DNA of 64,000 nucleotides from a bacterium (GCA_030654225.1 JAURXY010000034.1:25184-89183); one strand, 5' to 3'. Positions 21,501 to 58,464 are shown, numbered from the stretch's first letter. Program-made: numbers and translations. The notes: generated from the letters alone by a model not told the origin.

Positions 21501-21504
21501 AAAA

Positions 21505-28013: not shown

Positions 28014-28092
28014 TGTCATTCCCGTGAAAACGGGAATCTAGTCTCAAATCACTAAGTTTCTACACTAGATTCCCGCCTACGCGGGAATGACA
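28014..28092. mobile_element. MITE-like element, family B (TIR tgtcattcccg / cgggaatgaca), copy 1
   Basis: tgtcattcccgtgaaaacgggaatctagtctcaaatcactaagtttctacactagattcccgcctacgcgggaatgaca; between iscS and iscR. Confidence 0.75.
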
Positions 28093-28501: not shown

Positions 28502-28582
28502 ACTAATTTAGTATGCTTTAATTATAATCTTTTTGAAATAATCTGTCAACAGTGTTATAATTAAAATGTAATTGTAATTTTT

Positions 28583-28662
28583 ATGTCATCCTCGCGAATG
28601 CGGGGATCCAGTCTCAAATCATTAATTTTCTACACTAGATTCCCGCATTCGCGGGAATGACA
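28583..28662. mobile_element. MITE-like element, family B, copy 2
   Basis: tgtcatcctcgcgaatgcggggatccagtctcaaatcattaattttctacactagattcccgcattcgcgggaatgaca. The two copies flank iscR. Confidence 0.75.
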
Positions 28663-28671
28663 AAAATTTTT

Positions 28672-36128: not shown

Positions 36129-36938
36129 TCAGTTATGTTTTGGCAACGGCTTGCCCCGATATTTCCAAAAATACTTAATCGCACTAGCAATATGAATTCT
36201 AGAAAGTTTATTAAAAAAAAGGAGTTTGAAAATATTTTTACCAGCCGAACTTCTTCTGTGGTAATGATACATTTTAGCGATTGGATAATAAATAACTTTA
36301 TATCCGTTTTCCCAAAAATTTCGACACCAATCAATATCTTCGAAATAATATGTGAACCGCTTATCAATAAGTCCGACCACATCCGCTATTGCACGCCTTG
36401 TCATCATAGCTGATCCCAAAATCCAATCTACCTCCTGTATTTTATTATTATCCACATCTTTCATCAAATAATACTCAAGGTATTTCTTAGCAAACCACAA
36501 TTTTCCTAAAGGAGTTCTGCGATAAAGAATAGTTAGAGGAGTCATAAATCTAAAGCAGGATGTCTGGATAGAATCATTGAAATTAAGAAGTTGTGGTCCA
36601 ACAACACCCACTTCTTGATTATTTTTCATATATTCCAAAAGTTTCTCAATAGAATTTTCCTTGATAATAATATCGTCATTCAGAATGAGAATAAAATCTC
36701 CTGTACTCTCCTTATATCCTCTCCGTACCTCACCTCCAAACCATAAATTTATTTCCGAACTTAAAAATTTTATTTCAGAATAATCCTCTCTCATCATAGT
36801 AGAAATTTCTTCAGTAGTTTCAGAATCTGAAACTACAATTTCATAATCTGATCCGCTATAATTTTTCTTAATCGAATCAATGCAAACTTTCAAGAGTTCC
36901 GGACTTTTATAGCTAGTAATGATGATGGATAATTCCAT
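36129..36938 (-). CDS. Glycosyltransferase family 2
   Basis: 269 aa; 'LSIIITSYK' N-terminus and a DxD-like 'LNDDIII' motif. Confidence 0.75.
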   Translation of the reverse strand: MELSIIITSYKSPELLKVCIDSIKKNYSGSDYEIVVSDSETTEEISTMMREDYSEIKFLSSEINLWFGGEVRRGYKESTGDFILILNDDIIIKENSIEKLLEYMKNNQEVGVVGPQLLNFNDSIQTSCFRFMTPLTILYRRTPLGKLWFAKKYLEYYLMKDVDNNKIQEVDWILGSAMMTRRAIADVVGLIDKRFTYYFEDIDWCRNFWENGYKVIYYPIAKMYHYHRRSSAGKNIFKLLFFNKLSRIHIASAIKYFWKYRGKPLPKHN

Positions 36939-36943
36939 TTAAT

Positions 36944-38116
36944 TTATTTGGGTTTTATGTCTGATTGTGCTGGAAGGATAAAAATATCTTTTGCCATCTG
37001 GCGAATGCGATCGTAATTACCACCGATTGGCAAAAGAATATAACCGACTTCTTTTGGCATATCAGTTGGATTATAAAGTAATCCCTCTTCACTATTTTCC
37101 AAAACTCTTTGGTAAATTTGCAAATTTCCCAATTTCTTATAAAGCTCGTAGAATTTTTGCATTTCCCAAACCTGCATATCAGTTCTAACATTATCTCCTA
37201 AAGCCTTAAGCATAGCACTGCCCTTGGAAAAATCAGCTAGTGTTCCAATGCTTAACATTTTATCCTTAACTAGTTGAATTATTATTTGTTGCCTTTTAGC
37301 TCTTTCAAAATCACTAGAAGTCACACGAGATCTGGCATAGCAAAGAGCCTGATCACCATTAAGCATTTGCTTACCTGCAGGAAGCTTGAAATTTCCACCA
37401 CATTCCAAGGTGTTTTCAGGCGCTGCGCACAAAGGATAACTAGCTACAATTCTAGTTTTGTAAGTTTGTGTAGTTTTGCTAAAATATTTAACTGTTTTGT
37501 CTTCGTATTTTCCAGTTGGAATAGTGAAAAATGAATCGCAAACGTGAGGTTCCTTAAACTGCATAGCTTCTTCAAAAGGTTGATCAAGAGTTATTTCAAT
37601 TCCGCCAATAGCATCAATAAGTTGCTTGAAGCCAGCAAAATTTATACTCGCTCCATATTGAATCGGAAGTCCTGTCACTTCCCCAATAACTTTTTTCATA
37701 TCTTCCATTCCTTGTTTTTTGCCATTCTCTTCACCAGCAGCATAAACTGCATTAACTTTAGTTTTATTGCCCCAACCAGGGTTATCCACATATAAATCAC
37801 GCGGGATGGAAATTAATGAAGCCTTGTTATCTTTGATGTTGATACTAGCCACCATAATAGTGTCGGCTAAGGTTCCCCCGCCAACCACACCTTCTCCTCG
37901 CATTCCTAAAAGCAAAACATTGATTCTGCCGTCTTTTTCACCCTTTAAATCATTATTAACTCCAGGGATATTTTTTACTAATGATTGCAATAATCCACCC
38001 TTGGAAATTTTGTTAAGTATTCCGCCAGTTTTCCAAGCGAAAATTCCTCCGCCCAAAAACAAAACAACCGCAACAACTGCAAAAATTTTAAACCATCTTT
38101 TTTGATAAAATTTCAT
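36944..38116 (-). CDS. LytR-CpsA-Psr (LCP) family glycopolymer ligase
   Basis: 390 aa; N-terminal TM; 'VLLLGMRGEG...LADTIMVASI' and 'ISIPRDLYV' LCP core motifs. Confidence 0.8.
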   Translation of the reverse strand: MKFYQKRWFKIFAVVAVVLFLGGGIFAWKTGGILNKISKGGLLQSLVKNIPGVNNDLKGEKDGRINVLLLGMRGEGVVGGGTLADTIMVASINIKDNKASLISIPRDLYVDNPGWGNKTKVNAVYAAGEENGKKQGMEDMKKVIGEVTGLPIQYGASINFAGFKQLIDAIGGIEITLDQPFEEAMQFKEPHVCDSFFTIPTGKYEDKTVKYFSKTTQTYKTRIVASYPLCAAPENTLECGGNFKLPAGKQMLNGDQALCYARSRVTSSDFERAKRQQIIIQLVKDKMLSIGTLADFSKGSAMLKALGDNVRTDMQVWEMQKFYELYKKLGNLQIYQRVLENSEEGLLYNPTDMPKEVGYILLPIGGNYDRIRQMAKDIFILPAQSDIKPK

Positions 38117-38198
38117 TTTATTTTTTTAAATTTAAATTAATACTGCCAAATTATTGATTTGGCAATTATTACTATTTTACTTACAATTATATATTTAG

Positions 38199-39359
38199 TC
38201 AATGACTCATCTGCAAAAAAATTTCTAGCAATTTTTCCGCAGTTTTTTGCCAGGAAAATTTTTCAGCTTGCAACTTTCCATTTTTCGACAAACTATCTCG
38301 CACCATCTCATTGGTCATTATTTCCTTGATTTTTTGGGTCAACTCTCCGGGAATTTCTGGTTTGAAATATAGCGTTGCGTTATCTGCAATTTCTCTGTGT
38401 GGTGGAATATCGGAAACTATGGTTGGCACACCTAGCGACATCGCTTCGATAATTGGCATACCAAAACCTTCATAAAATGAAGGGAACACAAAAATATCCG
38501 CACCTTTGATTATCCCTGCCTTATCTTCTTCATCAATATACCCAGGAAAGAAAACGTCTTCAATTAAATTATTTTTTTTAGTTACTTCATCTATTAATTT
38601 GTCATAATTATACCCCTTACCTCCGGCGATAACTAATTTCAAAGAATTAAGTTTTAACTTTAAGTTGAGTTCGGTTTTTAACAGTGCCACTGCTTCGATA
38701 AGCGCTGGTATATTTTTTCTTGGTTGTAATGTGCCGATATATAGAATGTATCTTTCTGGAAGATTATATTTTATCTTGATTGCTTTTATTTTTTCCTCGG
38801 ATATATCTTGCGTCGAAAAATCCTCTGACACCGCATTATGAAACCAATCAACTTTTTTTGGATCAGTTTTATAATATTTAATTATTTCGTCTTGAGTGAA
38901 TTGGGACACCGCAATTATCTTGTCCGCACGCTTGAGACTTTTTGGAATCAAAGTTTTTAGAAATAACAAATCCCAAAATTTGATAAATTGCGGATAAAAA
39001 TTGAAAGAAATGTCATGAATAATTGTGACGATTTTTATTTTTTTCGGCACGAACCATGGTGTGATATATTGCGTGAGATAAACATCGACTGGTTTTTTTC
39101 GCAAATACATTGGAAGCGTCCAAAAATTCCAACTAAATTTGTTTTTCGTTGGAAGTGAAATTATTTCAAAATTTTTCTGATTATCTATTCCAAGACTTAC
39201 TCCAGTATTCTGTAATACTGTAGTATCAGTTATGTCGGTGAATAATTTATATTCATTCTCACTATCTATTTTAGCTAAATTTTTAGTCAAATTGAAAAAC
39301 ACCGCTTCGCTGCCAGTTTGTTTTTTGCCTATAAGTCGAATGTCAATACCTATTTTCAT
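38199..39359 (-). CDS. Glycosyltransferase family 4
   Basis: 'FPSFYEGFGMPIIEAMSLGVPTIVSD' EX7E motif. Start placed at the internal Met (MKIGIDIR) to avoid overlapping the upstream ORF. Confidence 0.75.
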   Translation of the reverse strand: MKIGIDIRLIGKKQTGSEAVFFNLTKNLAKIDSENEYKLFTDITDTTVLQNTGVSLGIDNQKNFEIISLPTKNKFSWNFWTLPMYLRKKPVDVYLTQYITPWFVPKKIKIVTIIHDISFNFYPQFIKFWDLLFLKTLIPKSLKRADKIIAVSQFTQDEIIKYYKTDPKKVDWFHNAVSEDFSTQDISEEKIKAIKIKYNLPERYILYIGTLQPRKNIPALIEAVALLKTELNLKLKLNSLKLVIAGGKGYNYDKLIDEVTKKNNLIEDVFFPGYIDEEDKAGIIKGADIFVFPSFYEGFGMPIIEAMSLGVPTIVSDIPPHREIADNATLYFKPEIPGELTQKIKEIMTNEMVRDSLSKNGKLQAEKFSWQKTAEKLLEIFLQMSH

Positions 39360-40957
39360 TTTTTTATTTGTGCTATTCCCAGCCAGAGCCAAAAAAATCC
39401 CAAAAATATTCCAGCATTAAAAAAATTGGGAACAATGATCGCAAACCAAGAAATTATTAAAAATAAACTAATAATTATTTGCGAATCATTTTGTGCTGCG
39501 TAATATTCTTTTATCGCTCTACCTAGTATATACGATAGCATAATCACAAAGGACGCAAAACCTAGAATTCCACTGCCAAGCCAAATTTCCAAAAATATAT
39601 TGGAAGAATTGAAGTTCATGCCTCGACCGTCTTCTCCTAAAATTTTCCCAATACTCCCCCAACCTATTCCTAAAATCGGGTGATTTTTTATCTCCTGCCA
39701 AGATCTTTGATAAATAAAGCTTCGAATTGAAATATTTGGATCTTTTCTAAAAATCTCCGTTACTAAATTTCCCTGATTTTTTTCTATTTCAATTTCTTCC
39801 AAGTTAATATGTCGACAACTATATTTTTCCAATTCAGAAATATTTTCAATTTCTTTTGGTAGGGAACGCAAATTTGCGTTCCCTACATTACAGGAAACGG
39901 TGATTTTCTGCATTCCTGATCCGGTTGACTGAACACGATTAAATAATTGGAAATTAGTTAGATGAAAAATATAAACCAGACCAACAGCAACAAAAAGCGC
40001 CGGGACTATAATCAGCTTTATTTTAATAGTTTCCCTCCATTGCCAATTTTTGGGATGGAATTTTAAATTTGTAAAAATAGTGAAAAGAAAAATAAATGTC
40101 ACGGCAAATGCACCGAGCCAAGCGCTTCTGCTTACAGTTAGGATAAGTAAAACATATGAAATAGTAAGTAATAAAAATAAACCGCCCAACAGAAGCTTAG
40201 CTTCGGGAGCTCCCGAAGCTAAGCTTCTGTCTGAGTCTTCGAAGTAATATATCAAAACATAAATTAAACTTATAACTAGCACTATAAAAATTCCCAACCA
40301 ATCCGCCTCCGAAAAAGTCGCATTTGGTCGTCCGGGCATCGTTTCAAAACTATTTAGCCCTCGCAAGAACCAAATATTTTGCCAAATTCCATAAAACACA
40401 ACGACCAAAGAAGAGCTAAGAAAAAATGGCACTACTTTTTTCAAGTCCTCGATATTTTGAATATAATTTCGCACTAAAAAATATAGCGCGGAAAATGTGG
40501 CCAGGATTATCGCCAATTTTAAACTTAAAATTTTATTCGACGCATTTATAATACTAAAAAGTCCGCCGATATTTATTATGACAATTAACCAATCATACCA
40601 TTCCAATTTAACTAATTTGAAATTCAGTTTTCCGGAAAGCAATCTGATTATTATGGCAGTAATTGTGAGTGCGCCGATAAATTGATATGGCCTGATTGCA
40701 ATTCCAAGCTCCAATGGCGCCAGATTGATGTTTTCTAGCGCAATCGTTCCAACAAAAAACAGAAACGCCCACCCAGGACGGTATAGCGCCAAAAACAAAG
40801 TCAGAATTGCAAAGAAAACAAAATCCCCTATTCGCAAAGGAATAATCCCTAAATTATTAAAAATAATCAAAAATAAAACTAAAGCCACATTCACCAAAAT
40901 CAACCAGCTCTTTGGTTTGTTGAGGTTATTAATTATTTTTTCAAAAAATAAATTCAT
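39356..40957 (-). CDS. O-antigen ligase/polymerase-like polytopic membrane protein (Wzy/WaaL family) with two in-frame palindromic insertions
   Basis: 533 aa with at least 10 TM helices and a large periplasmic loop. Palindromes at 39860-39887 and 40189-40238 are in-frame. Confidence 0.55.
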   Translation of the reverse strand: MNLFFEKIINNLNKPKSWLILVNVALVLFLIIFNNLGIIPLRIGDFVFFAILTLFLALYRPGWAFLFFVGTIALENINLAPLELGIAIRPYQFIGALTITAIIIRLLSGKLNFKLVKLEWYDWLIVIINIGGLFSIINASNKILSLKLAIILATFSALYFLVRNYIQNIEDLKKVVPFFLSSSLVVVFYGIWQNIWFLRGLNSFETMPGRPNATFSEADWLGIFIVLVISLIYVLIYYFEDSDRSLASGAPEAKLLLGGLFLLLTISYVLLILTVSRSAWLGAFAVTFIFLFTIFTNLKFHPKNWQWRETIKIKLIIVPALFVAVGLVYIFHLTNFQLFNRVQSTGSGMQKITVSCNVGNANLRSLPKEIENISELEKYSCRHINLEEIEIEKNQGNLVTEIFRKDPNISIRSFIYQRSWQEIKNHPILGIGWGSIGKILGEDGRGMNFNSSNIFLEIWLGSGILGFASFVIMLSYILGRAIKEYYAAQNDSQIIISLFLIISWFAIIVPNFFNAGIFLGFFWLWLGIAQIKK

Positions 40958-42160
40958 TTACATTTCTTCAATTATATTCAAAATCTTCTCACTAAATTTT
41001 TCCCACGAAAATTGCTTGGCTCGTTCTTGACCTCTGTTTTTTAGTTGTTCTCGCAAGTCATGATTAGTCAAAACATTCTTCAAAACCATCGCGATATCAG
41101 TTATGTCATCAGGATTACAATATAGCACACTATCTCCACCAACTTCTGGCAGTGAGGAAACTTTTGAAGTGATGACAGGCGTGCCAACATTCATTGCTTC
41201 CAGAATTTGCATGCCGAAACCTTCATAATGTGATGGATAGACAAACATAACAGCCTCACTAAACAGTGCTGGCAAATCTTTTTGCGGAACTTCACCCAAA
41301 AGAATCACGTGTTTCGTTAAATTTAATTCTTTAAGAATTCTTTCTATCGGCGTTGCCAGGCTCAAACTTTCCGGCAAAACTTTCCCGTATATCGCTAACT
41401 TCGGAAAATTTGGCAAGAAATTTTCTTTTTTGTTTCTTTCCAAAAGCAACTTATATGCCCGCACCACTCCTTCGACATTTTTCCGCACTTCATATCCCCC
41501 ACCAGCCAAAACATATCCGGGATTTATTTTGTATTTCTTCAAAATATTCGCATGTCCAGCATTCGTAGCGCCGGTTCGCGAAGCGAATAACTCATCTACA
41601 TCTATATAATTAGTAGTAATTTTGTCTGCGCCTATATTTAAGTGTTCAATTAGATCTTTTTCTGTCCTTTTGGAAACAGCAACAATTTTGTCCGCCTTTT
41701 TTATCCCATATTCTGTTAATTTCCAATACAATTTCTTTCTAAAGTTATCCAGATATTTGGGAAACAATTTTGGAATAATATCATGCACCAGCATAATATG
41801 CTTCACTTCCTTATATGGTTGAATGCCCGCCTGCCGGCGAGGCAGGGAAGTAGGACATTGGTACATACTAACAAAAACATCGCAACCGTCTTTTTTGACA
41901 AGGCGCGGCAAAAGGATTTTTTCCCACCAAATTTTTCGAATCAAATCATCGCGCTTATAAACTGGTAGGAATATTTTCTTGCTAAAATTATCAGGAAGCT
42001 TAAAATCTTTTGGAATATCTTCCTCCAAATACAAAACAAATTCAAAATCATTCTGCTTATATCTTACCAACATTTTCAAAAAATTGGTTGTCACTTGCCC
42101 GATGCCCGTATGAGGCTTTCGAAGATAACTTGCATTGATTCCTACTTTTTTCTTTTTCAT
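40958..42160 (-). CDS. Glycosyltransferase family 4 with an in-frame hairpin insertion
   Basis: 400 aa; 'YPSHYEGFGMQILEAMNVGTPVI'. The hairpin at 41826-41848 encodes 'LPRRQAG'. Confidence 0.75.
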   Translation of the reverse strand: MKKKKVGINASYLRKPHTGIGQVTTNFLKMLVRYKQNDFEFVLYLEEDIPKDFKLPDNFSKKIFLPVYKRDDLIRKIWWEKILLPRLVKKDGCDVFVSMYQCPTSLPRRQAGIQPYKEVKHIMLVHDIIPKLFPKYLDNFRKKLYWKLTEYGIKKADKIVAVSKRTEKDLIEHLNIGADKITTNYIDVDELFASRTGATNAGHANILKKYKINPGYVLAGGGYEVRKNVEGVVRAYKLLLERNKKENFLPNFPKLAIYGKVLPESLSLATPIERILKELNLTKHVILLGEVPQKDLPALFSEAVMFVYPSHYEGFGMQILEAMNVGTPVITSKVSSLPEVGGDSVLYCNPDDITDIAMVLKNVLTNHDLREQLKNRGQERAKQFSWEKFSEKILNIIEEM

Positions 42161-42280
42161 ATTTATATTGTAAAGCCAAAATCAAATTATGTCATCTGCT
42201 GAAATTATGCATTGCCAGATAATCACTTCTGAGCTATAATCAAGTTATAATAAAAGCTAATTTTTAAGCCTATAATACTT

Positions 42281-42511
42281 ATGTTTAGTATTGTTAAATT
42301 TGCCATTTGGATTGTCCTTTTTTTGGCCGCAACCTATTTTGTGCTTAAATTTTTCGGTTATGATGTTAATCGGGAATATTTTTCCGGCACCAGAAAGCAA
42401 TGTGAAGAAAGATTAAAAGAATGCACTAATGATATTTTTCATCAAGGCGTCGATAACGCCAAATGCGATTTTAATTGCGTCGACCCGAAACTAATAATTA
42501 AAAAGAACTAA
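42281..42511 (+). CDS. Small membrane-anchored Cys-containing protein
   Basis: 76 aa; N-terminal TM then four Cys (CEERLKEC...CDFNC). Lies immediately upstream of, and 1 nt from, the GT2 gene. Confidence 0.4.
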   Translation: MFSIVKFAIWIVLFLAATYFVLKFFGYDVNREYFSGTRKQCEERLKECTNDIFHQGVDNAKCDFNCVDPKLIIKKN

Positions 42512-42512
42512 T

Positions 42513-43496
42513 ATGAAATTAATCATCAACATTCCAGCCTACAACGAAGAAAAGGATCTTGGAAAAACAATTGAGCGAATCAAAGAAAGTCTTTCTAATG
42601 ATTTCTATTCTAATGAGGGCGCGCGTATTACTGAAAAATTAATTCAAGTAGTGGATGACGGTTCAAGTGATAATACTGCTGAAGTTGCTAGAAACAGCGG
42701 AGCAGATATAGTAATCTCCTACAAACCCAACAGACGCCTCGCCTATTCTTTCAAACAAGCAGTGGAAAGCTCCTTAGAAAAAGGCGCTGATTTTATGGTC
42801 AACATCGACGCTGACGGACAATTTGATCCTAACGATATTCCAAAGCTTCTTTTGCCAATACTGAATGGTGAAGCTGATATGGTGATTGCTAATCGTTTTG
42901 GAAGTCACAAAGCTAAAAACATTCCATGGGTGCGAAGTTTCTTTAATCGCTTTGCCGCTTCGGTTATTAGTTTTTTCCTAAATTGTAAAACCGATGACCT
43001 CACTTGTGGATTTCGTGCTCACTCTCGAGAAACCTTGCTCCGTTTTAATCTAACTAATATTCATTTCACCTACACTCAGGATACTATTATTGACGCCATT
43101 GGAAAAAATTTGAAACTAAAATGGGTGCCGATTACCGTCACTTATTTTGATAATCGCGAAGCCAAAATCACTAAGTCTATTTTTAAGTATATCAATGACT
43201 CTGGAAAAATAATTTTGAAAGCTGTTCGGGATGTCAGACCTTTGAAATTTTTCGGCTGGCCGGGAATATTTCTAATGTCAATCGGAGTTATTGGCTTTCT
43301 TATTTTCCTTTTTAATTACATTCAAGATTTGAAAATCGCCCCCTATCTTCATTATATAGTTTTTTCTGCTATCTCTTTACTCCTTGGAATTCAGCTGGTT
43401 GTTTTCGCCTTGATTGCTGATATGATCAAATCTGCCCGCCAACTCACCGAAGAACTTTTCTACCAATGGAAGAAAGATAAATACAATAAAAATTAA
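42513..43496 (+). CDS. GT2 polyprenyl-phosphate sugar synthase (DPM1/GtrB/ArnC-like) with C-terminal TM helices
   Basis: 327 aa; 'INIPAYNEEKDL', 'VVDDGSSDNT' and 'NIDADGQFD' motifs. Two C-terminal TM helices as in GtrB. Confidence 0.75.
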   Translation: MKLIINIPAYNEEKDLGKTIERIKESLSNDFYSNEGARITEKLIQVVDDGSSDNTAEVARNSGADIVISYKPNRRLAYSFKQAVESSLEKGADFMVNIDADGQFDPNDIPKLLLPILNGEADMVIANRFGSHKAKNIPWVRSFFNRFAASVISFFLNCKTDDLTCGFRAHSRETLLRFNLTNIHFTYTQDTIIDAIGKNLKLKWVPITVTYFDNREAKITKSIFKYINDSGKIILKAVRDVRPLKFFGWPGIFLMSIGVIGFLIFLFNYIQDLKIAPYLHYIVFSAISLLLGIQLVVFALIADMIKSARQLTEELFYQWKKDKYNKN

Positions 43497-43499
43497 TTC

Positions 43500-44618
43500 A
43501 TGAAAATTCTTTTTATCTCCCATTCCTATCCTCCAATTCTTGGTGGAGTGGAAAGTCAAAATTACAATTTAGCCCAGGGGCTTTCAAAAATTGCCCAAGT
43601 TAAGATTATCGCTAATGGCCGTGGTAAATGGTGGCTGCCTGTTTTTGTGCCGATAACATTCATACGGGCATTTTTTTTGATGATGAATTATGACGCCTGT
43701 CTCGTAGGGAATGGCGTTTTAGCTCCCCTAGCTTATGCTCTAAAACTTTTTCATCCCAAAAAGAAGTTTTTTTCAATTATCCATGCGCTTGATATAACCT
43801 TTTGTCATAAAAAAGGAATTCTACCAAAAATCTATAGCCTTACAAATATTCCTTCTATAAAAAAAATGGATAAACTTTTCATGGTGGGAAATTTTGCCGT
43901 CGAAGAAGCTATAAAAATTGGAGTGCCTAAGGAAAATTGCGTTTTTATTCCTAATGGAGTTTTTATTGAAAATTTCAGAAAAGAATTTTCTAGGCAAGAC
44001 TTGTCCGCTCTTTGGGGTGCAGACACCACCGAAAAAAAAGTTATTTTGCGCCTTGGCAGATTTGTTCCTCACAAAGGTACAGCTTGGTTTATAAAAAATA
44101 TAATGCCAAGACTCCCGGAAAATGTAATACTACTTGCCGTAGGAGGTCGCGTTGATAAAAATACCCCTGGCGATCCGGATAATTTTTCCGATTGCGAGAA
44201 AGAAATAAAAGAAAACAATTTAGAAAACAGAGTGAAACTTATCCCTAACATTCCACAAAAAGATTTGGAGATTTTGCTAAACACTGCTGATTTGGTAGTT
44301 TCTCCTAATATTCATTATAAAAGTTCCTCAGAAGGTTTTGGCATCAACGCTATTGAAGCTGCAGCTTGTGAAAGAGTAGTTATCGCTTCAAATATGCAAG
44401 GTTTGGCTGACGCAATCAAGGATGGCAAAAATGGTTTTCTAGTTGAAAGCGAAAACATAGATCAATGGGTCAAAAAAATCAACGCTATTTTTTCCGCCGG
44501 ACCGGAATTCGCCAAGAACTTTGGAATAATGGCTGGAAAATATGTGCAGGAAAATTTCACTTGGGAAAAAATTTCGAGGAAGTATTTAGAAGAGATGGAG
44601 AAAATAAGTAGCAAATAG
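43500..44618 (+). CDS. Glycosyltransferase family 4
   Basis: 372 aa; 'SEGFGINAIEAAACERVVIAS' motif. Confidence 0.7.
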   Translation: MKILFISHSYPPILGGVESQNYNLAQGLSKIAQVKIIANGRGKWWLPVFVPITFIRAFFLMMNYDACLVGNGVLAPLAYALKLFHPKKKFFSIIHALDITFCHKKGILPKIYSLTNIPSIKKMDKLFMVGNFAVEEAIKIGVPKENCVFIPNGVFIENFRKEFSRQDLSALWGADTTEKKVILRLGRFVPHKGTAWFIKNIMPRLPENVILLAVGGRVDKNTPGDPDNFSDCEKEIKENNLENRVKLIPNIPQKDLEILLNTADLVVSPNIHYKSSSEGFGINAIEAAACERVVIASNMQGLADAIKDGKNGFLVESENIDQWVKKINAIFSAGPEFAKNFGIMAGKYVQENFTWEKISRKYLEEMEKISSK

Positions 44619-44636
44619 AAAATATAAAGCAATAAA

Positions 44637-46595
44637 ATGTTAAATTTTATTTACAGTCAAATTTTATTTTATATATCTATTTTAGTAATTCTGTTTGTCC
44701 CAGGATATTTTTTGCTTTTGGCGGTTTTTGGTAAATATGAAAATCAGATAAGTAAATTAGAAAGATTTATTTTTTCTTTTGGATTAAGTTTAATCGTTGT
44801 TGATTTTATCGCTTTTGCTTATTCCAAACTAAACGTTCCGATTACTGCCCTCTCTTCAATTTTGGGGGTACTGTTTTTTGCCATAATTTGCCTTGCATTT
44901 AGACACTGGGTGTCTAAAAAGACACCCAGTGTCTCTGTAGGCATTCAAGAAGAAGATAAATTATTTTCTTTTTCCAAAAATCAATTTCTCCTCCTTTTGC
45001 TTCTTTTGTTTTTGACAATTTTTATTAAAACTGCCTATCTCAGTGGAACAGTTGCCCCAACTGCCACTGACATGGGTCATCACACCTATTGGGCTAAAGA
45101 AATGTCCACCACTCACAAACTTCCTGTTTATGAAGGAATGCCTGATTTTATCATTGGTGAACATATTGCTTTGTCAGAGATAAATATGATCAGTGGAAAA
45201 AGTTTCTTTTCAGCTTTCCCGGTTATTTTTTTGCTACTGATTAATCTTCTTAGTATCCTCACTGTTTTTATCTTGACTTTACGAATTTTCAAAAACAAGA
45301 ATGTTGCTATTCTTTCAATTCTTTTTTTGGGAGTTCTTTTTGCTGTTTCCTCACCTCAGGCTAAATTTGTTAGTGGTGGTGTAATAGGAAATATCTTGGG
45401 AAATCTTCTGATGCCTATGGCCTTTTATTTTTATTTCAGAGCTACAGAATTTCTAAATGTAGGGGTTCAATTTATTGAACCCACTAATAAACCGATTGGG
45501 TTTGATAAATCAAACCCCTACATTTTAAATGATAGTCAGAAATTTCTTTCCCTTGGAATTTTTTCCACTTTCGGACTTTTTTATACGCATCATCTCACTG
45601 CTTTTATATTTTTATTTATTTTTTCCTTACTTATTATTATTTTCCTAGCTCTAAATTACAAAGACCTGAAAAATATTTTTGGAAAAATATTTGATTTGGT
45701 TTTTTCCGTTCCTGTTATCACAACTTTTGCAGTCGGATTGATTTTTTTCTTTTTTATTTTCACTCCAAATTATATGCAGACTAGTGCGGTAGAAACCGCT
45801 GTCGGCACACCCTCAAAAGCCACTCGCGAAGGATTGAGTATGGACAACATAAAATCTTCCGTGGGCGAAGTTCGTCTGGCTCTTGGATTTTTAGGACTTC
45901 TGATTTTATCTTTGAATTATAAAAGAAAAAATTTCGGCTTCACTTTGATTTCTGCTTGGACAGTTATGCTTTTTATCATGTCCACTAAACCAGAATTAAT
46001 TTTCATCAACTTGCCTAGTTCTCGAATTGGAAATTATATGAGCTATCCCCTTGCCATCCTTTCTGCCTATGGATTATTTTCTATTTTCAATCCCAGTTTA
46101 GTTGATTCAAAAAAAATAATTCCCAAGAAATTTCTAGCTGGCTCATTTTTGATTATCCTAATTTTTGTTTTAACTAGCGGGATAAGCGACAGCGTTCAAG
46201 CTTTCAAAAAAGCCCCTGACTTCACTCCCGTTATTGAAACTTATGACGCTTCTAATTATTTAGTGAAAAATACTAACGAGGAAGATGTGATTCTAAAAGA
46301 TCATAATTATATCACTGCAGATTCTTGGATAAAATTGTTTTTTATGCAAGGTTATAGATACCCTCAGTCTCGTGGCTATTTCAAGCGTTATGAAGATCCC
46401 ACTAAACCTCGTGAAATGTGCACCCTCTATATGATTTCCAATCCGGCCGGTCAAGACGCCCAGGATTGTTTTTTTGAAACAAAAACTAATTATATTTTGG
46501 TTAATCCAAAATTTGATAGCTCCCAATTTGTAAAACTCAAAAATTTTAGCAAAGTTTATAACAATGGCGATGTAGCTGTTTATTATAAAAAATAA
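44637..46595 (+). CDS. Large polytopic membrane protein, possibly a third GT-C-type glycosyltransferase
   Basis: 652 aa; about 12 TM helices then a soluble C-terminal domain. Conserved-looking loop 'TATDMGHHTYWAKEM'. Confidence 0.45.
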   Translation: MLNFIYSQILFYISILVILFVPGYFLLLAVFGKYENQISKLERFIFSFGLSLIVVDFIAFAYSKLNVPITALSSILGVLFFAIICLAFRHWVSKKTPSVSVGIQEEDKLFSFSKNQFLLLLLLLFLTIFIKTAYLSGTVAPTATDMGHHTYWAKEMSTTHKLPVYEGMPDFIIGEHIALSEINMISGKSFFSAFPVIFLLLINLLSILTVFILTLRIFKNKNVAILSILFLGVLFAVSSPQAKFVSGGVIGNILGNLLMPMAFYFYFRATEFLNVGVQFIEPTNKPIGFDKSNPYILNDSQKFLSLGIFSTFGLFYTHHLTAFIFLFIFSLLIIIFLALNYKDLKNIFGKIFDLVFSVPVITTFAVGLIFFFFIFTPNYMQTSAVETAVGTPSKATREGLSMDNIKSSVGEVRLALGFLGLLILSLNYKRKNFGFTLISAWTVMLFIMSTKPELIFINLPSSRIGNYMSYPLAILSAYGLFSIFNPSLVDSKKIIPKKFLAGSFLIILIFVLTSGISDSVQAFKKAPDFTPVIETYDASNYLVKNTNEEDVILKDHNYITADSWIKLFFMQGYRYPQSRGYFKRYEDPTKPREMCTLYMISNPAGQDAQDCFFETKTNYILVNPKFDSSQFVKLKNFSKVYNNGDVAVYYKK

Positions 46596-46606
46596 ATTTC
46601 ATTTTT

Positions 46607-46966
46607 ATGCAACAAAAAAAGATTATTCTCTTCCTATTGATTACCTTCATAGCCAGCTCCGTTTGGCTTTTTTATGTGAGTGACAAAATTCTTGATCCGA
46701 ATGTTGGGAAAAATTGGTGGTCAATCTCTTTTTCCGATTCTAAATCAGAGAATTTAGATTTCGTAATTGAAAATCATAGTGATAAGGATAATTTTCAATG
46801 GGTTGTTTTGTCTGGCAATGATACAATCAAAGAAAGCGATGTGACTATCAAAAAAGGAGAGATCAGTTCAGTTAATGTTAATTTTGAAGATAGCTATAGA
46901 AACAAAAAAATTACCATTCAAGTAACTTCAGGAGATGAGAAAAAAGAAATTTATAAAAACTTATGA
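46607..46966 (+). CDS. Hypothetical secreted or membrane-anchored protein
   Basis: 119 aa; N-terminal TM/signal. Confidence 0.4.
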   Translation: MQQKKIILFLLITFIASSVWLFYVSDKILDPNVGKNWWSISFSDSKSENLDFVIENHSDKDNFQWVVLSGNDTIKESDVTIKKGEISSVNVNFEDSYRNKKITIQVTSGDEKKEIYKNL

Positions 46967-48081
46967 AAAAGATACTTCTAGTAACGAGGCCAATTGCCCC
47001 GCCGTGGGACGAAGGTTCAAAAAATTTCGCCTATTACCTAGCAAAAAATCTAGCAGGTTTTGAAATTAATTTAATGACTAAAGGAATTTTGTCCGGACTA
47101 TCTGATAATGTTCACCAGCATTCGGTTTATTCAACTTCAGAAATTCGCGATTTCAATTTTTCACAAAAGCTTCGCGCGCTTCTTTTCCAATTCAAAACCA
47201 AAGGCAAGTTCGATATCAATCACTATTTTTTCACTCCAACAAAACTCAACTCCTTCCTGATTAAGCATTTTTTCAAATCATCCAAAACTAAAACTATTCA
47301 AACTGTCGCTTCTCTTCGTGATGACTTGTGGTCGTCGGATGATATTCGAAAATTGATGTTTGCAGATCTCATCATCACCTATTCTGATTATGCCAAGAAC
47401 AAATTAAATTCACTTGGATTTCAAAATGTCAAAAGGGTTTATCCAGGAATTGATCTGGAAAAATATCAACTACAAGAAAGAAACTTGGAGCTTATGCAAG
47501 AAAAAAACATTTCGCCAACGGACTTTGTGATAAATTTCACTGGCGAGTATGTGCGCCTTGGTGCGATTGATTTAGTGATTGACAGTTTTATCGAAATTTC
47601 CAAAAAAATTCCCGAAGCCAAACTCACTCTAGCAGTTAGAATCAAAAACGAAAAAGACGCTCAGAAAAAAGAAGAGGTTATGGAAAAGATCAAAAAAAGT
47701 AATCTTCTGGAAAAAGTTTCTTTTTTTGATAATGGTAAATATGATATGCCAGAAGTTTATAATCTTTGCGACATTAGTCTTTTCCCAGTACAAAATATGC
47801 ACGGAAAATTTGATATCCCTCTCGCTGTTATCGAAACGATGGCCTGTGAAAAACCAGTCATCTTAACAGATTTGGAAATTCTAAAAGAATTGGGAAATAA
47901 TAATAACTCTGTTATAATTGAGAAAGACAATCTAAAACAATTGACTGACGCAATTTTTGATTTATACCAAGACACAGAAAAAAGAAAAATGCTCGGGAAA
48001 AATGCTAGAAAGTTTTGTGAGGAAAATTTCGACATAAAAAATATAGCTAGGGCTTATGAAAAAATATATGAACAATTATAA
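46963..48081 (+). CDS. GT-B fold glycosyltransferase (GT4-like, divergent)
   Basis: 372 aa; C-terminal 'FPVQNMHGKFDIPLAVIETMACEKPVILTDL' resembles an EX7E region. Confidence 0.55.
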   Translation: MKKILLVTRPIAPPWDEGSKNFAYYLAKNLAGFEINLMTKGILSGLSDNVHQHSVYSTSEIRDFNFSQKLRALLFQFKTKGKFDINHYFFTPTKLNSFLIKHFFKSSKTKTIQTVASLRDDLWSSDDIRKLMFADLIITYSDYAKNKLNSLGFQNVKRVYPGIDLEKYQLQERNLELMQEKNISPTDFVINFTGEYVRLGAIDLVIDSFIEISKKIPEAKLTLAVRIKNEKDAQKKEEVMEKIKKSNLLEKVSFFDNGKYDMPEVYNLCDISLFPVQNMHGKFDIPLAVIETMACEKPVILTDLEILKELGNNNNSVIIEKDNLKQLTDAIFDLYQDTEKRKMLGKNARKFCEENFDIKNIARAYEKIYEQL

Positions 48082-49570
48082 TTTTGAAAATTTAAACGAA
48101 AACAAAAAAAAGTTCCAAACGGAAAAAATGAAAGTGCCGGCTATTTTTTTTATGAGTGAAGATTTAATACCTAAGGATGATTCTTTCGAAAAATTAGAAG
48201 ATATTGCTTCTAATCAAGATACACTTTTCCGTAATTTAGTCGCTATGCCTGATGTTTGTTCAAAGCCAGGCAGGAAAAATGCTTCCGGAACAACTATAGT
48301 CAGCGAAAATTACATACTGCCTCAAGTTAATGACTCAGACCCAAACTGTGGAATGCGTCTAATTAAAACTAATTTAACTGAAGATAATCTAACTAGTAAT
48401 GATATTGAAAATATTTTCAAGGAATTAGTAAGCACCGTTCCAACTAAAAAATTCGTCGGAACCAAAGTCCCTTTTAATGTTGTCGTTGATATTTGTCGAG
48501 AAGGAACATCCGCCATAATCAAACATCTCGGAATCAAAACAAAAAACGAACTCGAAAACACTCAGGATGGTGGTAATTTTTTCGGACGTATTATGGAAAG
48601 AAAAGATATTTTTGATGTAATACCAAAGCTGTACTTGTTTTTTGCGCGGTATCGCTTGGGAATTTTAGGCGCAGCTGGAAACCATTTTTCAGATCTTATG
48701 AAAGTAGATGAGATTATAGATTCCGAAATTGCCAAAAAAATGGGAATAGAAAAGGGACAGTATCTCTTTATGATTCACACTGGTTCAGGAATTTTGGGAC
48801 AATACACAATGTATACTCATACTGCCAAGAAACGCGAGCATCTTTCACAAGCTCTTATGGTAACACTTGGAAAAATGACTTTCAATTCCAGAAAAAAAGA
48901 AACTTATAAAAAGATGCAACAAAAAATAAAATTGCATATGTCAGGAGAAGAATCACTGCTTAGATATGACGGCAACGGAGAGGATGGAGAATTATATATG
49001 AACGCGCGAGCAGCCGCTTCTAATTTCGGCACTGCCAATAGAGCTGTTATCACTCACAATATCTCCGAAACGATAAAAAAAGTTCTTGGGCGTGACCCCG
49101 AAATGGATTTGATCTATGACATGCCTCACATTTCAATTTCCAAGGAAGAACATTTTGGGCGTGAAGTTTTTGTTCACCGAAGCAACACTTCAAGAGCATA
49201 TGGCCCTAGCAAGATGAAAAGTCATCCGATTTACGGCGAAACCGGCGAACCTGTCTTTATTCCATCTTCAATGGCCACTGACGCCTACATTTGCGTCGGA
49301 ACAGATGAAAATCAAGACAGTTTTTTCTCAGCTCCTCATGGCACCGGCAAAGGAACTAACGATAATGAAAAAACCATTGCCAATAAAGATGACCTTTTCG
49401 CCAAAATGAAAGAAAAAAATATCCGTCTTTACAATGCCCAATCTTCCATTGTTATCAATCAAGATTCTTCTCGATACAAAAATATAGACAAAGTAATTGA
49501 AGGTATTGAAGCCAACAAAATCGCTCACATTGTAGCAAAAATGAAACCCGTAGCGGTTATAATGTATTAA
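48056..49570 (+). CDS. rtcB: RtcB-family RNA ligase (divergent)
   Basis: 'AMPDVCSKPG', 'DPNCGMR' and 'HTGSGILGQ' are RtcB-like motifs, with C-terminal 'KMKPVAVIMY'. The start may instead be at 48128 (MKVPAIFF). Confidence 0.65.
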   Translation: MKKYMNNYNFENLNENKKKFQTEKMKVPAIFFMSEDLIPKDDSFEKLEDIASNQDTLFRNLVAMPDVCSKPGRKNASGTTIVSENYILPQVNDSDPNCGMRLIKTNLTEDNLTSNDIENIFKELVSTVPTKKFVGTKVPFNVVVDICREGTSAIIKHLGIKTKNELENTQDGGNFFGRIMERKDIFDVIPKLYLFFARYRLGILGAAGNHFSDLMKVDEIIDSEIAKKMGIEKGQYLFMIHTGSGILGQYTMYTHTAKKREHLSQALMVTLGKMTFNSRKKETYKKMQQKIKLHMSGEESLLRYDGNGEDGELYMNARAAASNFGTANRAVITHNISETIKKVLGRDPEMDLIYDMPHISISKEEHFGREVFVHRSNTSRAYGPSKMKSHPIYGETGEPVFIPSSMATDAYICVGTDENQDSFFSAPHGTGKGTNDNEKTIANKDDLFAKMKEKNIRLYNAQSSIVINQDSSRYKNIDKVIEGIEANKIAHIVAKMKPVAVIMY

Positions 49571-49575
49571 ATTTT

Positions 49576-50160
49576 ATGAAACTAATCACAATTTCTGGTC
49601 TTGATGGCTCAGGGAAATCAACTCAAATTGAAATGCTAAAAAAGCATTTAGAATCGCAAAGTAAGCGGGTTTTTTATTTTCATGCTGGGCAATTTAGTAT
49701 TAGTAAGATTTATAATATTTTAAGACCACACAAGATTATTACTGGCAAACATCATGAAAGCGTGGTCAAAGCTAATGTTTTTCAAATTTATCTTCGTCGT
49801 TTTGCATTACTGATAGATTTGGTGCGCTTTAAGTTATTACATAATAAATTACGTAATAAAAATTATGATTATATTTTGAGTGACCGGTATTTTTATGATA
49901 GTGTGGTTAATATTGAATTTTTATGTAGGGAACGCATATATGCGTTCCCTACGTGGATTGTAAATCCCGATTTGGCAATCTATCTTCAAACTGATCCGGA
50001 AATAATAATGCAAAGAGAAAGAAAGCCTGATCAAGGAATTGATTATCTCAAAAAGAAAAAAAATATATATGACGCAAAAATTCTCGATTGGAATATGAAA
50101 CTAATTAATGGCAATCGAGGCCAAGAAGAAATTTTTAAAGAAATAAAATCATTTTTATGA
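49576..50160 (+). CDS. tmk: Thymidylate kinase-like P-loop kinase with an in-frame palindromic insertion
   Basis: 194 aa; 'ISGLDGSGKSTQ' P-loop and 'LSDRYFYDS' DRY motif. The palindrome at 49925-49952 encodes 'RERIYAFP'. Confidence 0.6.
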   Translation: MKLITISGLDGSGKSTQIEMLKKHLESQSKRVFYFHAGQFSISKIYNILRPHKIITGKHHESVVKANVFQIYLRRFALLIDLVRFKLLHNKLRNKNYDYILSDRYFYDSVVNIEFLCRERIYAFPTWIVNPDLAIYLQTDPEIIMQRERKPDQGIDYLKKKKNIYDAKILDWNMKLINGNRGQEEIFKEIKSFL

Positions 50161-51638
50161 AAAACAATTTAGTAAAATCAGTTTTCTGGGTAACGGTTTC
50201 GGAAATTTTATTTAATCTTTCCGGTTATGTAATCCATTCTGTTGCTGGAAGAGTTTTGGGTCCGGGTGATTATGGTCGCTATGGAATTGTAATAACACTC
50301 ACTACGATGATTATTATTCTTGTTGGCAATGGCGTGCCAACTGCTATGGCAAAATATTTGAGTGAAGTTTTTGAATCCAATCCGATAATGATTGGTGTAA
50401 TTAAGAAAAAAGCTATCATTCTCCAATCCATTATTATTGGAACGCTAACCGTAATATTTTTTCTTTTAGCGCCAGTTTTGGCATGGGCGTTAAAAGATCC
50501 AACACTTACCAATCTTTTTCGTCTTTCCACTTTGATTATTCCTGCTTTTGCTATGTCCTCTTTCTATTTTTCCTATTACACCGGTCTTCACAAGTTCAAC
50601 ATTCAATCTCTGCTAAAAACTCTGCGCTCGCTTTTTAGAGTGACTATTATTGTTGCTCTCGCCTATTTCTACAAAGTGCCCGGAGCAATCTTGGGTTATG
50701 TCATCGCTCCGTTTCTAACTTTTATTATCGGTTGGTGTATTGATAAATTTAGAGTTAAAGCAGAAATTGAAAATCAAATACAACTTAATCCCAATAAAGC
50801 AGAAATAGTTTTTGAATATAAAAAACTTATGCGTTATGCTTGGCAAATCGTTATTTTTTTTCTCGCCTACGAGCTTTTTATCAGCATTGATTTATATTTA
50901 GTAAAAGGAATTTTGAGAAATGATTATTTAACCGGAATATATAATGGCGCCCTTACAGTTGGACGCATCCCCTATTATGTTTTTTATGCCCTCACCGTTG
51001 TTCTTCTTCCGGCAATTTCCAAAAGCACTTCCGAGAACAACCATGCAAAAACCAGCCAGATCATTGGAAATTCCTTGCGCTTAATGTTGATTATTTTGGC
51101 CCCCGCTATTATCTTGATGGCCTATTTTTCTCAACCAATAATAAAGATTTTTTATAGCGCTAGATATTTGGCGGCTGCTGAACCGATGGCGGTTTTGGTT
51201 TATGGGGTGGGATTTTTGACAATTTTCTATGTGATGAGTTTTGTTATGAATGGAGCGGGAAAAACTAAGATCCCGATGATTATTTCTATTATTGGCTTGA
51301 CTTTGAATTCTGTTTTGAACTATTTTTTCATTCAAAAATTTGGACTTATGGGTTCCGCTTGGGCCACAACAATTTCTTCATTTCTAGCCATGCTTCTAAT
51401 GGTCTATTTCCTCTATAGAGAGTTTGGGGTTGTAATTAGTATAAAGAGCCTTCTAAGAGTTATTTTCTCCTCAGGAGGGCTTTATTTGACTTCCACACTC
51501 TTCCCTAATGAAAATTATTACTTTATTATCTGGTCTATAATTCTGCTATCTTTCTATTTTATTTTTCTTTATATACTAGGAGAAATAAAAAAAGATGATA
51601 TTTCATATTTCAGAAATATCATCCTTAAGAAAAAATAA
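50157..51638 (+). CDS. Polysaccharide flippase (Wzx-like, MOP superfamily)
   Basis: 493 aa; about 14 TM helices; N-terminal 'VFWVTVSEILFNLSGYVIHSVAGRVLGPGDYGRYG'. Confidence 0.7.
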   Translation: MKNNLVKSVFWVTVSEILFNLSGYVIHSVAGRVLGPGDYGRYGIVITLTTMIIILVGNGVPTAMAKYLSEVFESNPIMIGVIKKKAIILQSIIIGTLTVIFFLLAPVLAWALKDPTLTNLFRLSTLIIPAFAMSSFYFSYYTGLHKFNIQSLLKTLRSLFRVTIIVALAYFYKVPGAILGYVIAPFLTFIIGWCIDKFRVKAEIENQIQLNPNKAEIVFEYKKLMRYAWQIVIFFLAYELFISIDLYLVKGILRNDYLTGIYNGALTVGRIPYYVFYALTVVLLPAISKSTSENNHAKTSQIIGNSLRLMLIILAPAIILMAYFSQPIIKIFYSARYLAAAEPMAVLVYGVGFLTIFYVMSFVMNGAGKTKIPMIISIIGLTLNSVLNYFFIQKFGLMGSAWATTISSFLAMLLMVYFLYREFGVVISIKSLLRVIFSSGGLYLTSTLFPNENYYFIIWSIILLSFYFIFLYILGEIKKDDISYFRNIILKKK

Positions 51639-55048: not shown

Positions 55049-55095
55049 AATTTGCTATTTTAGTTTAAGCCAAAAATTATAATTTGGCAAAAAAA

Positions 55096-56721: not shown

Positions 56722-56723
56722 AT

Positions 56724-58382: not shown

Positions 58383-58464
58383 AAATATACTATCTTTACA
58401 ATAAGCCTATTTTTAATTATATTATATACAGATAGATTGTCAAAGTTTAATCTCAATAAAAATT

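Follow-up and report, generated by a model that had tools for sequence, protein, structure and literature searches.

Polyprenyl-phosphate-sugar/GT-C systems include GtrA-GtrB-Gtr(type), which glucosylates O-antigen, CsbB-GtcA-YfhO, which glycosylates teichoic acids, and the ArnC-ArnT and Ppm1-PMT systems. The archaeal Agl pathway of N-glycosylation uses AglJ, cytoplasmic glycosyltransferases (GTs), the flippase AglR and the GT-C enzymes AglS and AglB, and in its Haloferax form it starts without a phosphoglycosyltransferase; polyprenyl-monophosphate routes in general (the Gtr, CsbB/YfhO, Arn and Haloferax Agl systems) need no such enzyme. A further kind is represented by Wzx/Wzy loci with a LytR-CpsA-Psr (LCP) transferase, such as pneumococcal cps and the TagO/TagA linkage unit. 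Here we describe a stretch of 64,000 nucleotides of bacterial DNA (GCA_030654225.1, JAURXY010000034.1:25184-89183; "the window", with positions counted from its first letter), in which an island of envelope-glycan genes carries rtcB, for an RNA ligase, and tmk, for a thymidylate-kinase-like protein. We read the region, with a probability of roughly 0.6, as a conserved three-module envelope-glycosylation supercluster of Moranbacteria (candidate phyla radiation, CPR, or Patescibacteria), in which rtcB and tmk would be ancestral co-transcribed residents and most probably housekeeping passengers. The locus most likely belongs among the known kinds of lipid-linked envelope glycosylation loci, and the island is coherent across an entire lineage within the CPR.

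Open reading frames (ORFs) of the window were listed in six frames, translated and scanned with Pfam, using the gathering scores as threshold. The gene map is compact, as is typical of a CPR bacterium, and the close homologs all come from metagenome-assembled genomes (MAGs) of Candidatus Moranbacteria/Moraniibacteriota or of the "Parcubacteria group". An earlier note on this DNA had proposed a contiguous island from 36129 to 51638 with rtcB and tmk embedded in it. The glycan genes that it listed, rtcB, tmk and the flippase gene all lie where it placed them; all GT assignments pass their profile thresholds, as do the LCP, Wzy_C, RtcB, Tmk-like and flippase calls, and no further non-glycan genes were found in that stretch. 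Its right boundary was drawn too short, as PMT_2 GT-C genes extend the island to the end of the window. The island thus measures at least 28 kb (at least 36129-64000), with rtcB and tmk as the sole non-glycan genes. GC content is low throughout the window (about 0.33-0.37), with neither the island nor rtcB/tmk standing out in composition. The genes and signals of the island are as follows.

36129-36938, minus strand: GT2 glycosyltransferase of soluble type (Pfam Glycos_transf_2, 72.9 bits)
36944-38116, minus strand: LCP glycopolymer transferase with one N-terminal transmembrane segment (Pfam LytR_cpsA_psr PF03816, 114.7 bits)
38199-39392, minus strand: GT4 glycosyltransferase (Pfam Glycos_transf_1, 121.9 bits)
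39356-40957, minus strand: Wzy_C polytopic protein with about 11 hydrophobic segments and two in-frame palindromes (Pfam Wzy_C, 60 bits)
40958-42160, minus strand: GT4 glycosyltransferase, first gene of the minus-strand module (Pfam Glycos_transf_1, 98.7 bits)
42161-42280, no strand: divergent intergenic promoter region between the modules (consensus matches only)
42281-42511, plus strand: Cys76, a 76-aa membrane-anchored protein with four Cys residues, first gene of the plus-strand operon (from the sequence)
42513-43496, plus strand: GtrB/AglJ-like GT2 (Pfam GT2, 72 bits)
43500-44618, plus strand: GT4 glycosyltransferase (Pfam Glycos_transf_1, 106.8 bits)
44637-46595, plus strand: 652-aa putative GT-C-fold glycosyltransferase with a C-terminal extracytoplasmic domain (Pfam DUF1616 and DUF6541; structure model and Foldseek)
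46607-46966, plus strand: p119, a 119-aa protein with a single transmembrane segment and no family match, always directly after the GT-C gene
46963-48081, plus strand: GT4 glycosyltransferase whose 3' end overlaps the rtcB start (Pfam Glycos_transf_1, 68.7 bits)
48056-49570, plus strand: RtcB-family 3'-phosphate/5'-hydroxyl RNA ligase, "type A" of the Moranbacteria clade (Pfam PF01139, 241.4 bits)
49576-50160, plus strand: divergent P-loop kinase of the thymidylate kinase family (Pfam Thymidylate_kin PF02223, 46.9 bits; cut-off 27)
50157-51638, plus strand: flippase of the multidrug/oligosaccharidyl-lipid/polysaccharide (MOP) superfamily, Wzx/SpoVB/MurJ-like (Pfam Polysacc_synt 93.5 bits, cut-off 28.2; Polysacc_synt_3 66; MurJ 58.9)
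51591-51626, no strand: hairpin with a 14-bp stem, candidate bidirectional terminator at the convergent junction of the flippase and first PMT_2 genes (hairpin scan)
51643-53262, 53255-55048, 55096-56721 and 56724-58382, minus strand: four PMT_2 GT-C paralogs in tandem (Pfam PMT_2/PMT)
58465-60342, 60346-62253 and 62292 to beyond the window end, plus strand: three more PMT_2 GT-C paralogs (Pfam PMT_2/PMT; the seventh by identity)

Relatives of the locus were collected as contigs encoding Tmk homologs at 60-72% identity and by searching genomes, one for each GTDB species, with an alignment of the Tmk family, which gave 23 Moranbacteria-type loci (L007-L029; Tmk identity 34-57%), some of them recorded as "uncultured Bdellovibrionales". 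The stretches read from the relatives were about 20 kb each, and their ORFs were labelled by BLASTP against the proteins of our window. Wherever the contig is long enough, the order Cys76-GT2-GT4-GT-C(DUF6541)-p119-GT4-RtcB-Tmk-flippase was found, in L001, L003, L005, L007-L029 and L087, and PMT_2 genes follow the flippase gene in the contigs of 60-72% identity as well. The orthologous loci therefore keep the same genes in the same order and are not scattered; together with the GT calls this bears out the earlier proposal of a coherent island. RtcB and Tmk are adjacent in 23 of 25 locus entries, and the core GT4-RtcB-Tmk-flippase is kept despite other flanks (LigT and PriA upstream in L011; PriA, Fmt and rhodanese downstream in L015). 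There is no RtcB upstream of Tmk in L014; in L025, GT4 is separated from RtcB by ZnuA and an ABC-3 permease, and RtcB from Tmk by a Wzy_C gene; in L026, Ddl and a 2-thiouracil desulfurase stand between RtcB and Tmk. That unrelated genes intervene in L025 and L026 and that L014 is without RtcB at this place speaks against GT4-RtcB-Tmk being an obligatory functional unit. Other housekeeping blocks (PriA-Fmt-Rhodanese, LigT-PriA and NifS-PDDEXK) are also intact in the relatives, so that block synteny by descent is the background of this lineage.

Because the gene order recurs in relatives down to 34% Tmk identity, rtcB and tmk are ancestral and not recently inserted; judged by this conservation, they are old residents of the operon. 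The earlier note had taken the pair as a hint of recent rearrangement, and a rearrangement that brought them into the island, with a palindrome in tmk as its scar, would suit both their being the only two non-glycan genes in the stretch and the following perfect palindrome inside tmk. The conserved order across Moranbacteria refutes such an event, and a recent insertion was also rejected on composition, as neither GC nor skew shifts around 48-50 kb (GC 0.334-0.350, like the flanks).

49925-49952, no strand: perfect 28-nt palindrome GTAGGGAACGCATATATGCGTTCCCTAC, in frame in tmk, encoding CRERIYAFPT (palindrome search)

The palindrome in tmk is real; what did not stand is its reading as a sign of rearrangement. 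In the AlphaFold2 (AF2) model it lies in the loop between helix 106-116 and strand 133-138, a variable surface loop that is hypervariable in length and sequence among orthologs, and in the family alignment it adds no length to the window protein. Nor is it specific to tmk: a copy with two mismatches lies in frame in the Wzy-like gene (39859-39886), where 0 are expected by chance, and the window contains 37 palindromes with arms of at least 11 nt compared with 4-9 in mononucleotide shuffles. Among three relatives, the same loop of Tmk carries a degraded copy in L087, an unrelated perfect palindrome with 21-nt arms in L001 and no such palindrome in L003. It is one of many small hairpin repeats tolerated in frame in variable loops of this genome. 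The palindrome is uninformative on any rearrangement of rtcB/tmk, and a recent rearrangement is, on gene order, composition and palindrome taken together, highly improbable.

The identities between relatives are distributed unevenly along the operon. Most genes of L003, the closest sequenced relative, are 78-94% identical to those of the window, whereas its Tmk and flippase are both 63% identical, which suggests from the sequences that these two genes were swapped as one cassette. In L001, L007 and L010, the GT genes are 74-89% identical to the window, whereas the GT-C gene is 41-42%, p119 49-50% and RtcB 37-39% identical. This mosaic of identity by cassette resembles the allele exchange that surface-glycan loci typically show, which here would reach the embedded genes as well.

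Overlaps between reading frames tie rtcB and tmk closely to their neighbours. With its ATG at 48056 or 48068, rtcB begins inside the GT4 gene before it (stop at 48081), an overlap of 14-26 nt. Orthologs conserve the N-terminal RtcB residues encoded there, so the upstream ATG is a real start. The tmk gene begins 5 nt past the rtcB stop, and the flippase start overlaps the tmk stop by 4 nt (ATGA). The best sigma-70-like site of the 16.5-kb region scanned, TTGCCA-17-TATAAT at 42212-42240 on the plus strand, has 11 of 12 matches and is located upstream of Cys76, and a promoter-like site with 10 of 12 consensus matches faces the minus strand at 42195-42167. No strong terminator-like site was found in the same region before 51591, the hairpin at 51591-51626 being the only long one. 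As the promoter and terminator scans are low in specificity (78 promoter-like sites vs 60 in shuffles), we infer rather than observe that the plus-strand operon including rtcB and tmk is co-transcribed.

The plus-strand operon, 9.4 kb long, looks like a polyprenyl-phosphate-sugar/GT-C glycosylation route, with its GtrB/AglJ-like GT2, its GT-C protein and the seven PMT_2 proteins encoded next to it. The GT2 encoded at 42513-43496 has its GT2 domain at residues 7-173, followed by two C-terminal transmembrane helices starting at 246 and 275. Its best NCBIfam match is AglJ (122 bits), followed by PpgS, a Dol-P-hexose transferase, ArnC and PgfS, all under their equivalog cut-offs; from the sequence it is predicted to be a polyprenyl-phosphate sugar synthase. 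Cys76, whose gene is too short for our ORF list, has no Pfam or NCBIfam match and is kept at the same position in at least 13 relatives at 30-92% identity; the position of p119 is kept in the relatives as well.

The 652-aa protein was modelled with AF2 from 37 homologs (mean predicted local distance difference test score, pLDDT, 78.3; predicted TM-score 0.84). All 17 Foldseek matches in the PDB with E<1e-3 are GT-C enzymes (E 1e-6 to 6e-4, TM-scores 0.43-0.51), and they include the C-mannosyltransferase DPY19, STT3 of the yeast and human oligosaccharyltransferase (OST), PglB, ALG12, AftA and ArnT. Invariant acidic and His residues of the family, T144-D145-x-G147-H148-H149, lie in the first predicted external loop. 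On the strength of the model, the DUF1616/DUF6541 protein is best read as a GT-C enzyme that would use a polyprenyl-phosphate-linked donor outside the membrane, and the DUF1616/DUF6541 family would thereby gain a function at the level of the fold, that of a GT-C glycosyltransferase.

In the scheme that we propose, the GtrB/AglJ-like GT2 would charge polyprenyl phosphate with a sugar, the GT4 enzymes of the operon would act at the cytoplasmic face, the MOP flippase would export the lipid-linked glycan, and the GT-C-fold enzyme with its 119-aa partner would transfer the glycan outside the membrane. The seven PMT_2 paralogs may use such lipid-linked donors on proteins or wall polymers. The analysis shows the gene identities, the GT-C fold, the synteny, the overlaps and how the palindromes are distributed; the order of the reactions, the acceptor, co-transcription and the passenger status of rtcB and tmk are what we infer.

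Like the GtrA-GtrB-Gtr(type), CsbB-GtcA-YfhO, ArnC-ArnT and Ppm1-PMT systems, the locus has a GtrB-type GT2 with two C-terminal transmembrane helices and polytopic GT-C transferases, and in one relative a YfhO gene is adjacent, as in the CsbB-GtcA-YfhO type. Unlike them, it has a MOP (Wzx-like) flippase instead of a small one of the GtrA/GtcA type, of which no GtrA-family match was found among the window proteins scanned, and it carries the embedded rtcB and tmk. The extra cytoplasmic GT4 enzymes suggest, by analogy, an oligosaccharide rather than a single sugar. The archaeal Agl pathway resembles the locus in its whole set of enzymes, a polyprenyl-monophosphate hexose synthase with AglJ as best NCBIfam match, soluble GTs, a Wzx-like flippase and an OST/DPY19-like GT-C fold. 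However, the AglJ score is far under the equivalog cut-off of 325, the organism is bacterial, and the GT-C protein has no STT3 match in Pfam and reaches OST structures only at the TM-scores given above; N-linked protein glycosylation is only an analogy.

The minus-strand module, GT4-Wzy_C-GT4-LCP-GT2, is of a type that would build a lipid-linked polymer and ligate it to the wall. The LCP protein also exceeds the cut-off of NCBIfam lytR_cpsA_psr (TIGR00350, 93.8 bits vs 62.3). The Wzy_C domain is common to polymerases, WaaL ligases and PglL-type O-oligosaccharyltransferases, and the protein here could be of the polymerase, ligase or O-oligosaccharyltransferase type. The true start of the GT4 gene at 38199-39392 is likely the ATG at 39359, judged from its 4-nt overlap with the stop of the Wzy-like gene, and the first GT4 gene of the module (40958-42160) adjoins the Cys76 gene in relatives too. 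Pfam confirmed that genes for RmlC, RmlB and a TagA/WecG-family protein lie elsewhere in the window, as the earlier note had said, and the LCP-anchored, Wzx/Wzy-dependent rhamnose polymer that it suggested is plausible, as it fits the minus-strand module, TagA and RmlBC.

Like Wzx/Wzy loci with LCP, the window thus has Wzy_C, a MOP flippase, LCP, GT2 and GT4 enzymes, a TagA-family protein and RmlB/RmlC. It differs from them in that the flippase belongs to the other, divergently transcribed operon and in what was not found in it: RmlA and RmlD among the window genes, a Wzz or tyrosine-kinase (CpsCD) chain-length regulator among the window proteins scanned, and a priming phosphoglycosyltransferase. 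On the last point the earlier note is borne out, with no Pfam match to Bac_transf (WbaP) or Glycos_transf_4 (WecA) in any window ORF of at least 110 aa; such an enzyme may be encoded elsewhere in the genome. A wall-polymer route through the minus-strand Wzy and LCP proteins would need a priming enzyme encoded elsewhere. The plus-strand operon may need none, because it starts with a GtrB/AglJ-like polyprenyl-phosphate sugar synthase, and a monophosphate-initiated route may explain the absence of a priming transferase from this operon.

The PMT_2 array forms the third module, with six complete genes (51643-62253) and an incomplete seventh that leaves the window. The four minus-strand paralogs are 29-40% identical to each other, and they and the three plus-strand paralogs form two groups with no BLASTP similarity between them. 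The seventh frame, open from 62292, shares 62% identity with the sixth gene, and the two may stem from a recent tandem duplication.

The assignment of the flippase to the glycan route has to be weighed against the possibility that it is the cell's lipid II flippase (MurJ/SpoVB-like), in which case RtcB-Tmk-flippase would be a housekeeping block merely abutting glycan genes. The best NCBIfam matches are indeed SpoVB (84 bits) and MurJ (64.5 bits), Pfam MurJ scores 58.9 bits, and the block travels together and adjoins PriA/Fmt in L011 and L015. However, the flippase is under all NCBIfam equivalog cut-offs, the MurJ and SpoVB scores being far under theirs (235 and 372), and its best Pfam family is Polysacc_synt at 93.5 bits. 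In almost all relatives the flippase gene also has a GT4 gene before it and PMT_2 GT-C genes after it, and without it the operon would have no flippase for the GtrB-like/GT-C route. A lipid II flippase at this place is therefore improbable, and we retain the export of a lipid-linked glycan as its predicted role.

The proteins encoded by rtcB and tmk have the hallmarks of their families. The RtcB domain is full-length (positions 10-424 of 426 of the PF01139 model), and the equivalents of Pyrococcus horikoshii C98, H203, H234, H329 and H404 show no variation among the orthologs covering them, so that the metal-binding Cys/His ligands and the guanylylated His nucleophile (H404) are all retained; at the position of D95, the window has D and 10 orthologs have A. 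The 120 best database clusters for the window type of RtcB are all at least 75% identical, which points to a constrained enzyme. The AF2 model of the Tmk-like protein has a pLDDT of 85.8, falling below 50 at residues 48-63, and its top 50 Foldseek matches are all thymidylate kinases (TM-scores 0.58-0.73). The GLDGSGKST P-loop and SDRY (the DRY motif) are invariant in the family alignment, and the F/R positions of the thymine site and the LID arginines are present; in sequence, the protein reaches only about 34 bits to solved Tmks. In the reading that we prefer, RtcB would be an ordinary RNA-repair ligase and the Tmk-like protein the cell's divergent dTMP kinase, both riding in an operon of a compact genome without a part in glycan chemistry. 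No glycan pathway is known to use a Tmk-fold kinase or RtcB, and a search of the literature on RtcB or thymidylate kinase in CPR, on DUF1616 and on Moranbacteria glycosyltransferases yielded nothing relevant.

Several observations weigh against this passenger status. The tmk gene adjoins the flippase gene in every one of the 26 locus entries (two of them duplicates of other contigs); the two genes lie no more than 640 nt apart, and in 11 entries their frames overlap. Against the dTMP-kinase equivalog TIGR00041, whose cut-off is 83.25, the Tmk-like protein reaches 49 bits, and an invariant YFHA, directly before the poorly modelled residues 48-63, replaces the REPGG-type dTMP-binding motif after strand 2. 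Equally divergent Tmk-like proteins are encoded in GT4/hexapeptide/STAS/Polysacc_synt clusters of Acidobacteriaceae (L034 4452-10678 and relatives) and at the end of a GT4-methyltransferase-GT4-LPG_synthase_TM operon in a MAG of the CPR group Uhrbacteria (L047 523-9271), while L050, a Bacteroidales Tmk of canonical type that reaches 90 bits to the M. tuberculosis enzyme, stands in an unrelated context. The RtcB clade has changes (P. horikoshii numbering) at E206, which is D, at N330, which is I or V, and at its C-terminus, which reads ...LMY instead of the usual ...KG and has no equivalent of the Lys K480; these three positions are ones that we take to contact GMP in the P. horikoshii RtcB-GMP structures. 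In L001, L007 and L010, RtcB has been replaced or has strongly diverged in situ, being 37-39% identical to the window protein while the neighbouring GT4 is 83-89% identical. Finally, co-transcription is read from the sequence only.

These points bear on a different reading, in which glycan synthesis itself would depend on the Tmk-like kinase and perhaps on RtcB too. The kinase could act on a nucleotide-sugar precursor, the polyprenol carrier or the lipid-linked glycan before it is flipped, and selection would then keep it translationally coupled to the flippase. The constant adjacency and frequent overlap of the two genes would be explained in this way, as would the joint drop of Tmk and flippase to 63% in L003, where the flanking genes are 81-94% identical, the sub-threshold equivalog score with the loss of REPGG, and the divergent Tmk-like proteins (30-41 bits to solved Tmks) at the end of clusters with GT4 and Wzx-like genes in Acidobacteria and with GT4 and MprF-type flippase-domain genes in Uhrbacteria. 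On the other hand, the fold and the top structural matches are those of thymidylate kinases, and the P-loop, the DRY motif, the thymine-site F/R positions and LID arginines are in place. Other Tmk paralogs from the same scan stand in unrelated contexts, among them tandem Tmk pairs from other phyla. Tandem pairs of Tmk-family genes were seen in Verrucomicrobia, Thermoplasmata and Chloroflexi loci (L036, L043-L045, L059-L063 and L086). From the Acidobacteria proteins (E about 1e-16) to other Tmks (1e-13 to 1e-9), similarity to the Moranbacteria protein falls off without a break, and because the sample is limited in size and GT genes often occur as neighbours, the association across phyla is not statistically established. 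A universal link of Tmk-like and glycan genes was rejected, since Tmk paralogs in Bacteroidales and UBP8 have unrelated contexts and only three lineages show the link. We regard a role of the kinase in the glycan pathway as unlikely, though it deserves some weight.

A bolder version holds that in Moranbacteria, and possibly in Uhrbacteria and Acidobacteria, a divergent Tmk-fold kinase was recruited to lipid-linked glycan biosynthesis in translational coupling with the flippase, where it might phosphorylate, for instance, the carrier lipid, a precursor nucleotide sugar or the glycan, and that RtcB, given the changed nucleotide pocket of its clade and the allele replacement in situ, serves the envelope and not RNA repair; this is a quite speculative idea to which we give little credence. 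An anti-phage defence role was considered and rejected: PADLOC gave no match for RtcB, Cys76, p119, the GT4 upstream of rtcB, the flippase or LigT, and for Tmk only a weak P-loop match (VakA, 28 bits).

Our preferred reading of RtcB as a repair ligase invites comparison with the known RtcB RNA repair operons (rtcBA-rtcR, RtcB-archease and RtcB-PrfH), with which the window shares a full-length RtcB with its Cys/His ligands and His nucleophile. Unlike those, rtcB here sits in a glycosyltransferase operon, shows the clade-specific residue changes and occurs in three divergent types in the same slot among relatives; the window genes scanned include no RtcA, RtcR, archease or PrfH. The third type (L001 8639-9955, L007 8219-9643 and L010 8509-9837; 438-474 aa, the proteins of 37-39% identity mentioned above) reads LSEAHT in place of MPDVC and HEIGK in place of HGTGK, has S at N202 and is missing the Y451 segment, while the Cys/His ligands and the His nucleophile are kept. 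In the Moranbacteria MAG L024 (7903-9409), rtcB is broken up into three ORFs that overlap or adjoin, which a pseudogene or assembly frameshifts could explain.

CPR bacteria are uncultured episymbionts whose surface glycans probably mediate host attachment and phage recognition, and the locus offers a conserved order-wide blueprint of how Moranbacteria build such glycans, comprising a polyprenyl-phosphate sugar synthase, GT4 enzymes, a MOP flippase, a putative OST/DPY19-like GT-C enzyme and a large PMT_2 array. That an RNA ligase and a divergent Tmk-fold kinase stand between the last GT and the flippase throughout the order is mildly interesting. The embedding cautions against reading odd genes in an island as recent rearrangement, and it would be weightier if the Tmk-like kinase acts in the glycan pathway.

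The in-frame palindromes are a separate small curiosity about the plasticity of CPR genomes. Besides the one in tmk, the following were found.

40189-40230: in-frame palindrome in the Wzy gene
44901-44934: in-frame palindrome in the GT-C gene
45455-45525: in-frame palindromic insertion in the GT-C gene, inserted relative to most orthologs
21911-21961: in-frame palindrome in TagA
9762-10198 and 20511-20535: in-frame palindromes in Dus (four) and in PriA

They are GC-rich and perfect or near-perfect, and some share sequence between unrelated genes. Those of the GT-C and Wzy genes coincide with insertions relative to orthologs, and relatives carry different palindromes at the same loops. Exact copies were sought in 87 fetched loci: GTAGGGAACGC(N6)GCGTTCCCTAC was found in none and AGAAGCTTAGCTTC in L029 only, three times. 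Most simply, lineage-specific hairpin repeats would insert in many places and persist in frame only where a loop tolerates them. In being short, in frame within genes, located in variable loops and related between unrelated genes, they resemble Rickettsia palindromic elements and REP-like (repetitive extragenic palindromic) repeats. They differ in being much shorter (28-71 nt), in belonging to several unrelated families and in that exact copies are not shared with relatives beyond the L029 motif; their mobility is only conjectural.

Some further features lie outside the island. Envelope genes are found at the left end of the window (170-3582) too, where a GT4 gene, a gene for a 311-aa protein with two transmembrane segments and no family, and a gene for a DUF4012 protein stand directly upstream of RmlC/RmlB. 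The gene for a LigT/2H phosphoesterase (20910-21500) runs 23 nt into the start of the TagA/WecG-family gene (21478-22236). It is the second RNA-end-processing enzyme in the window that is joined operon-wise to a wall-glycan gene, which may be chance with about 40% of the window genes being glycan-related. Two long imperfect hairpins of about 80 nt (28014-28092 and 28580-28666), with the common motif TGTCATTCCCG...CGGGAATGACA, flank a gene for an Rrf2-family regulator (28097-28501) located between NifS and a PD-(D/E)XK/Cas4-like nuclease gene.

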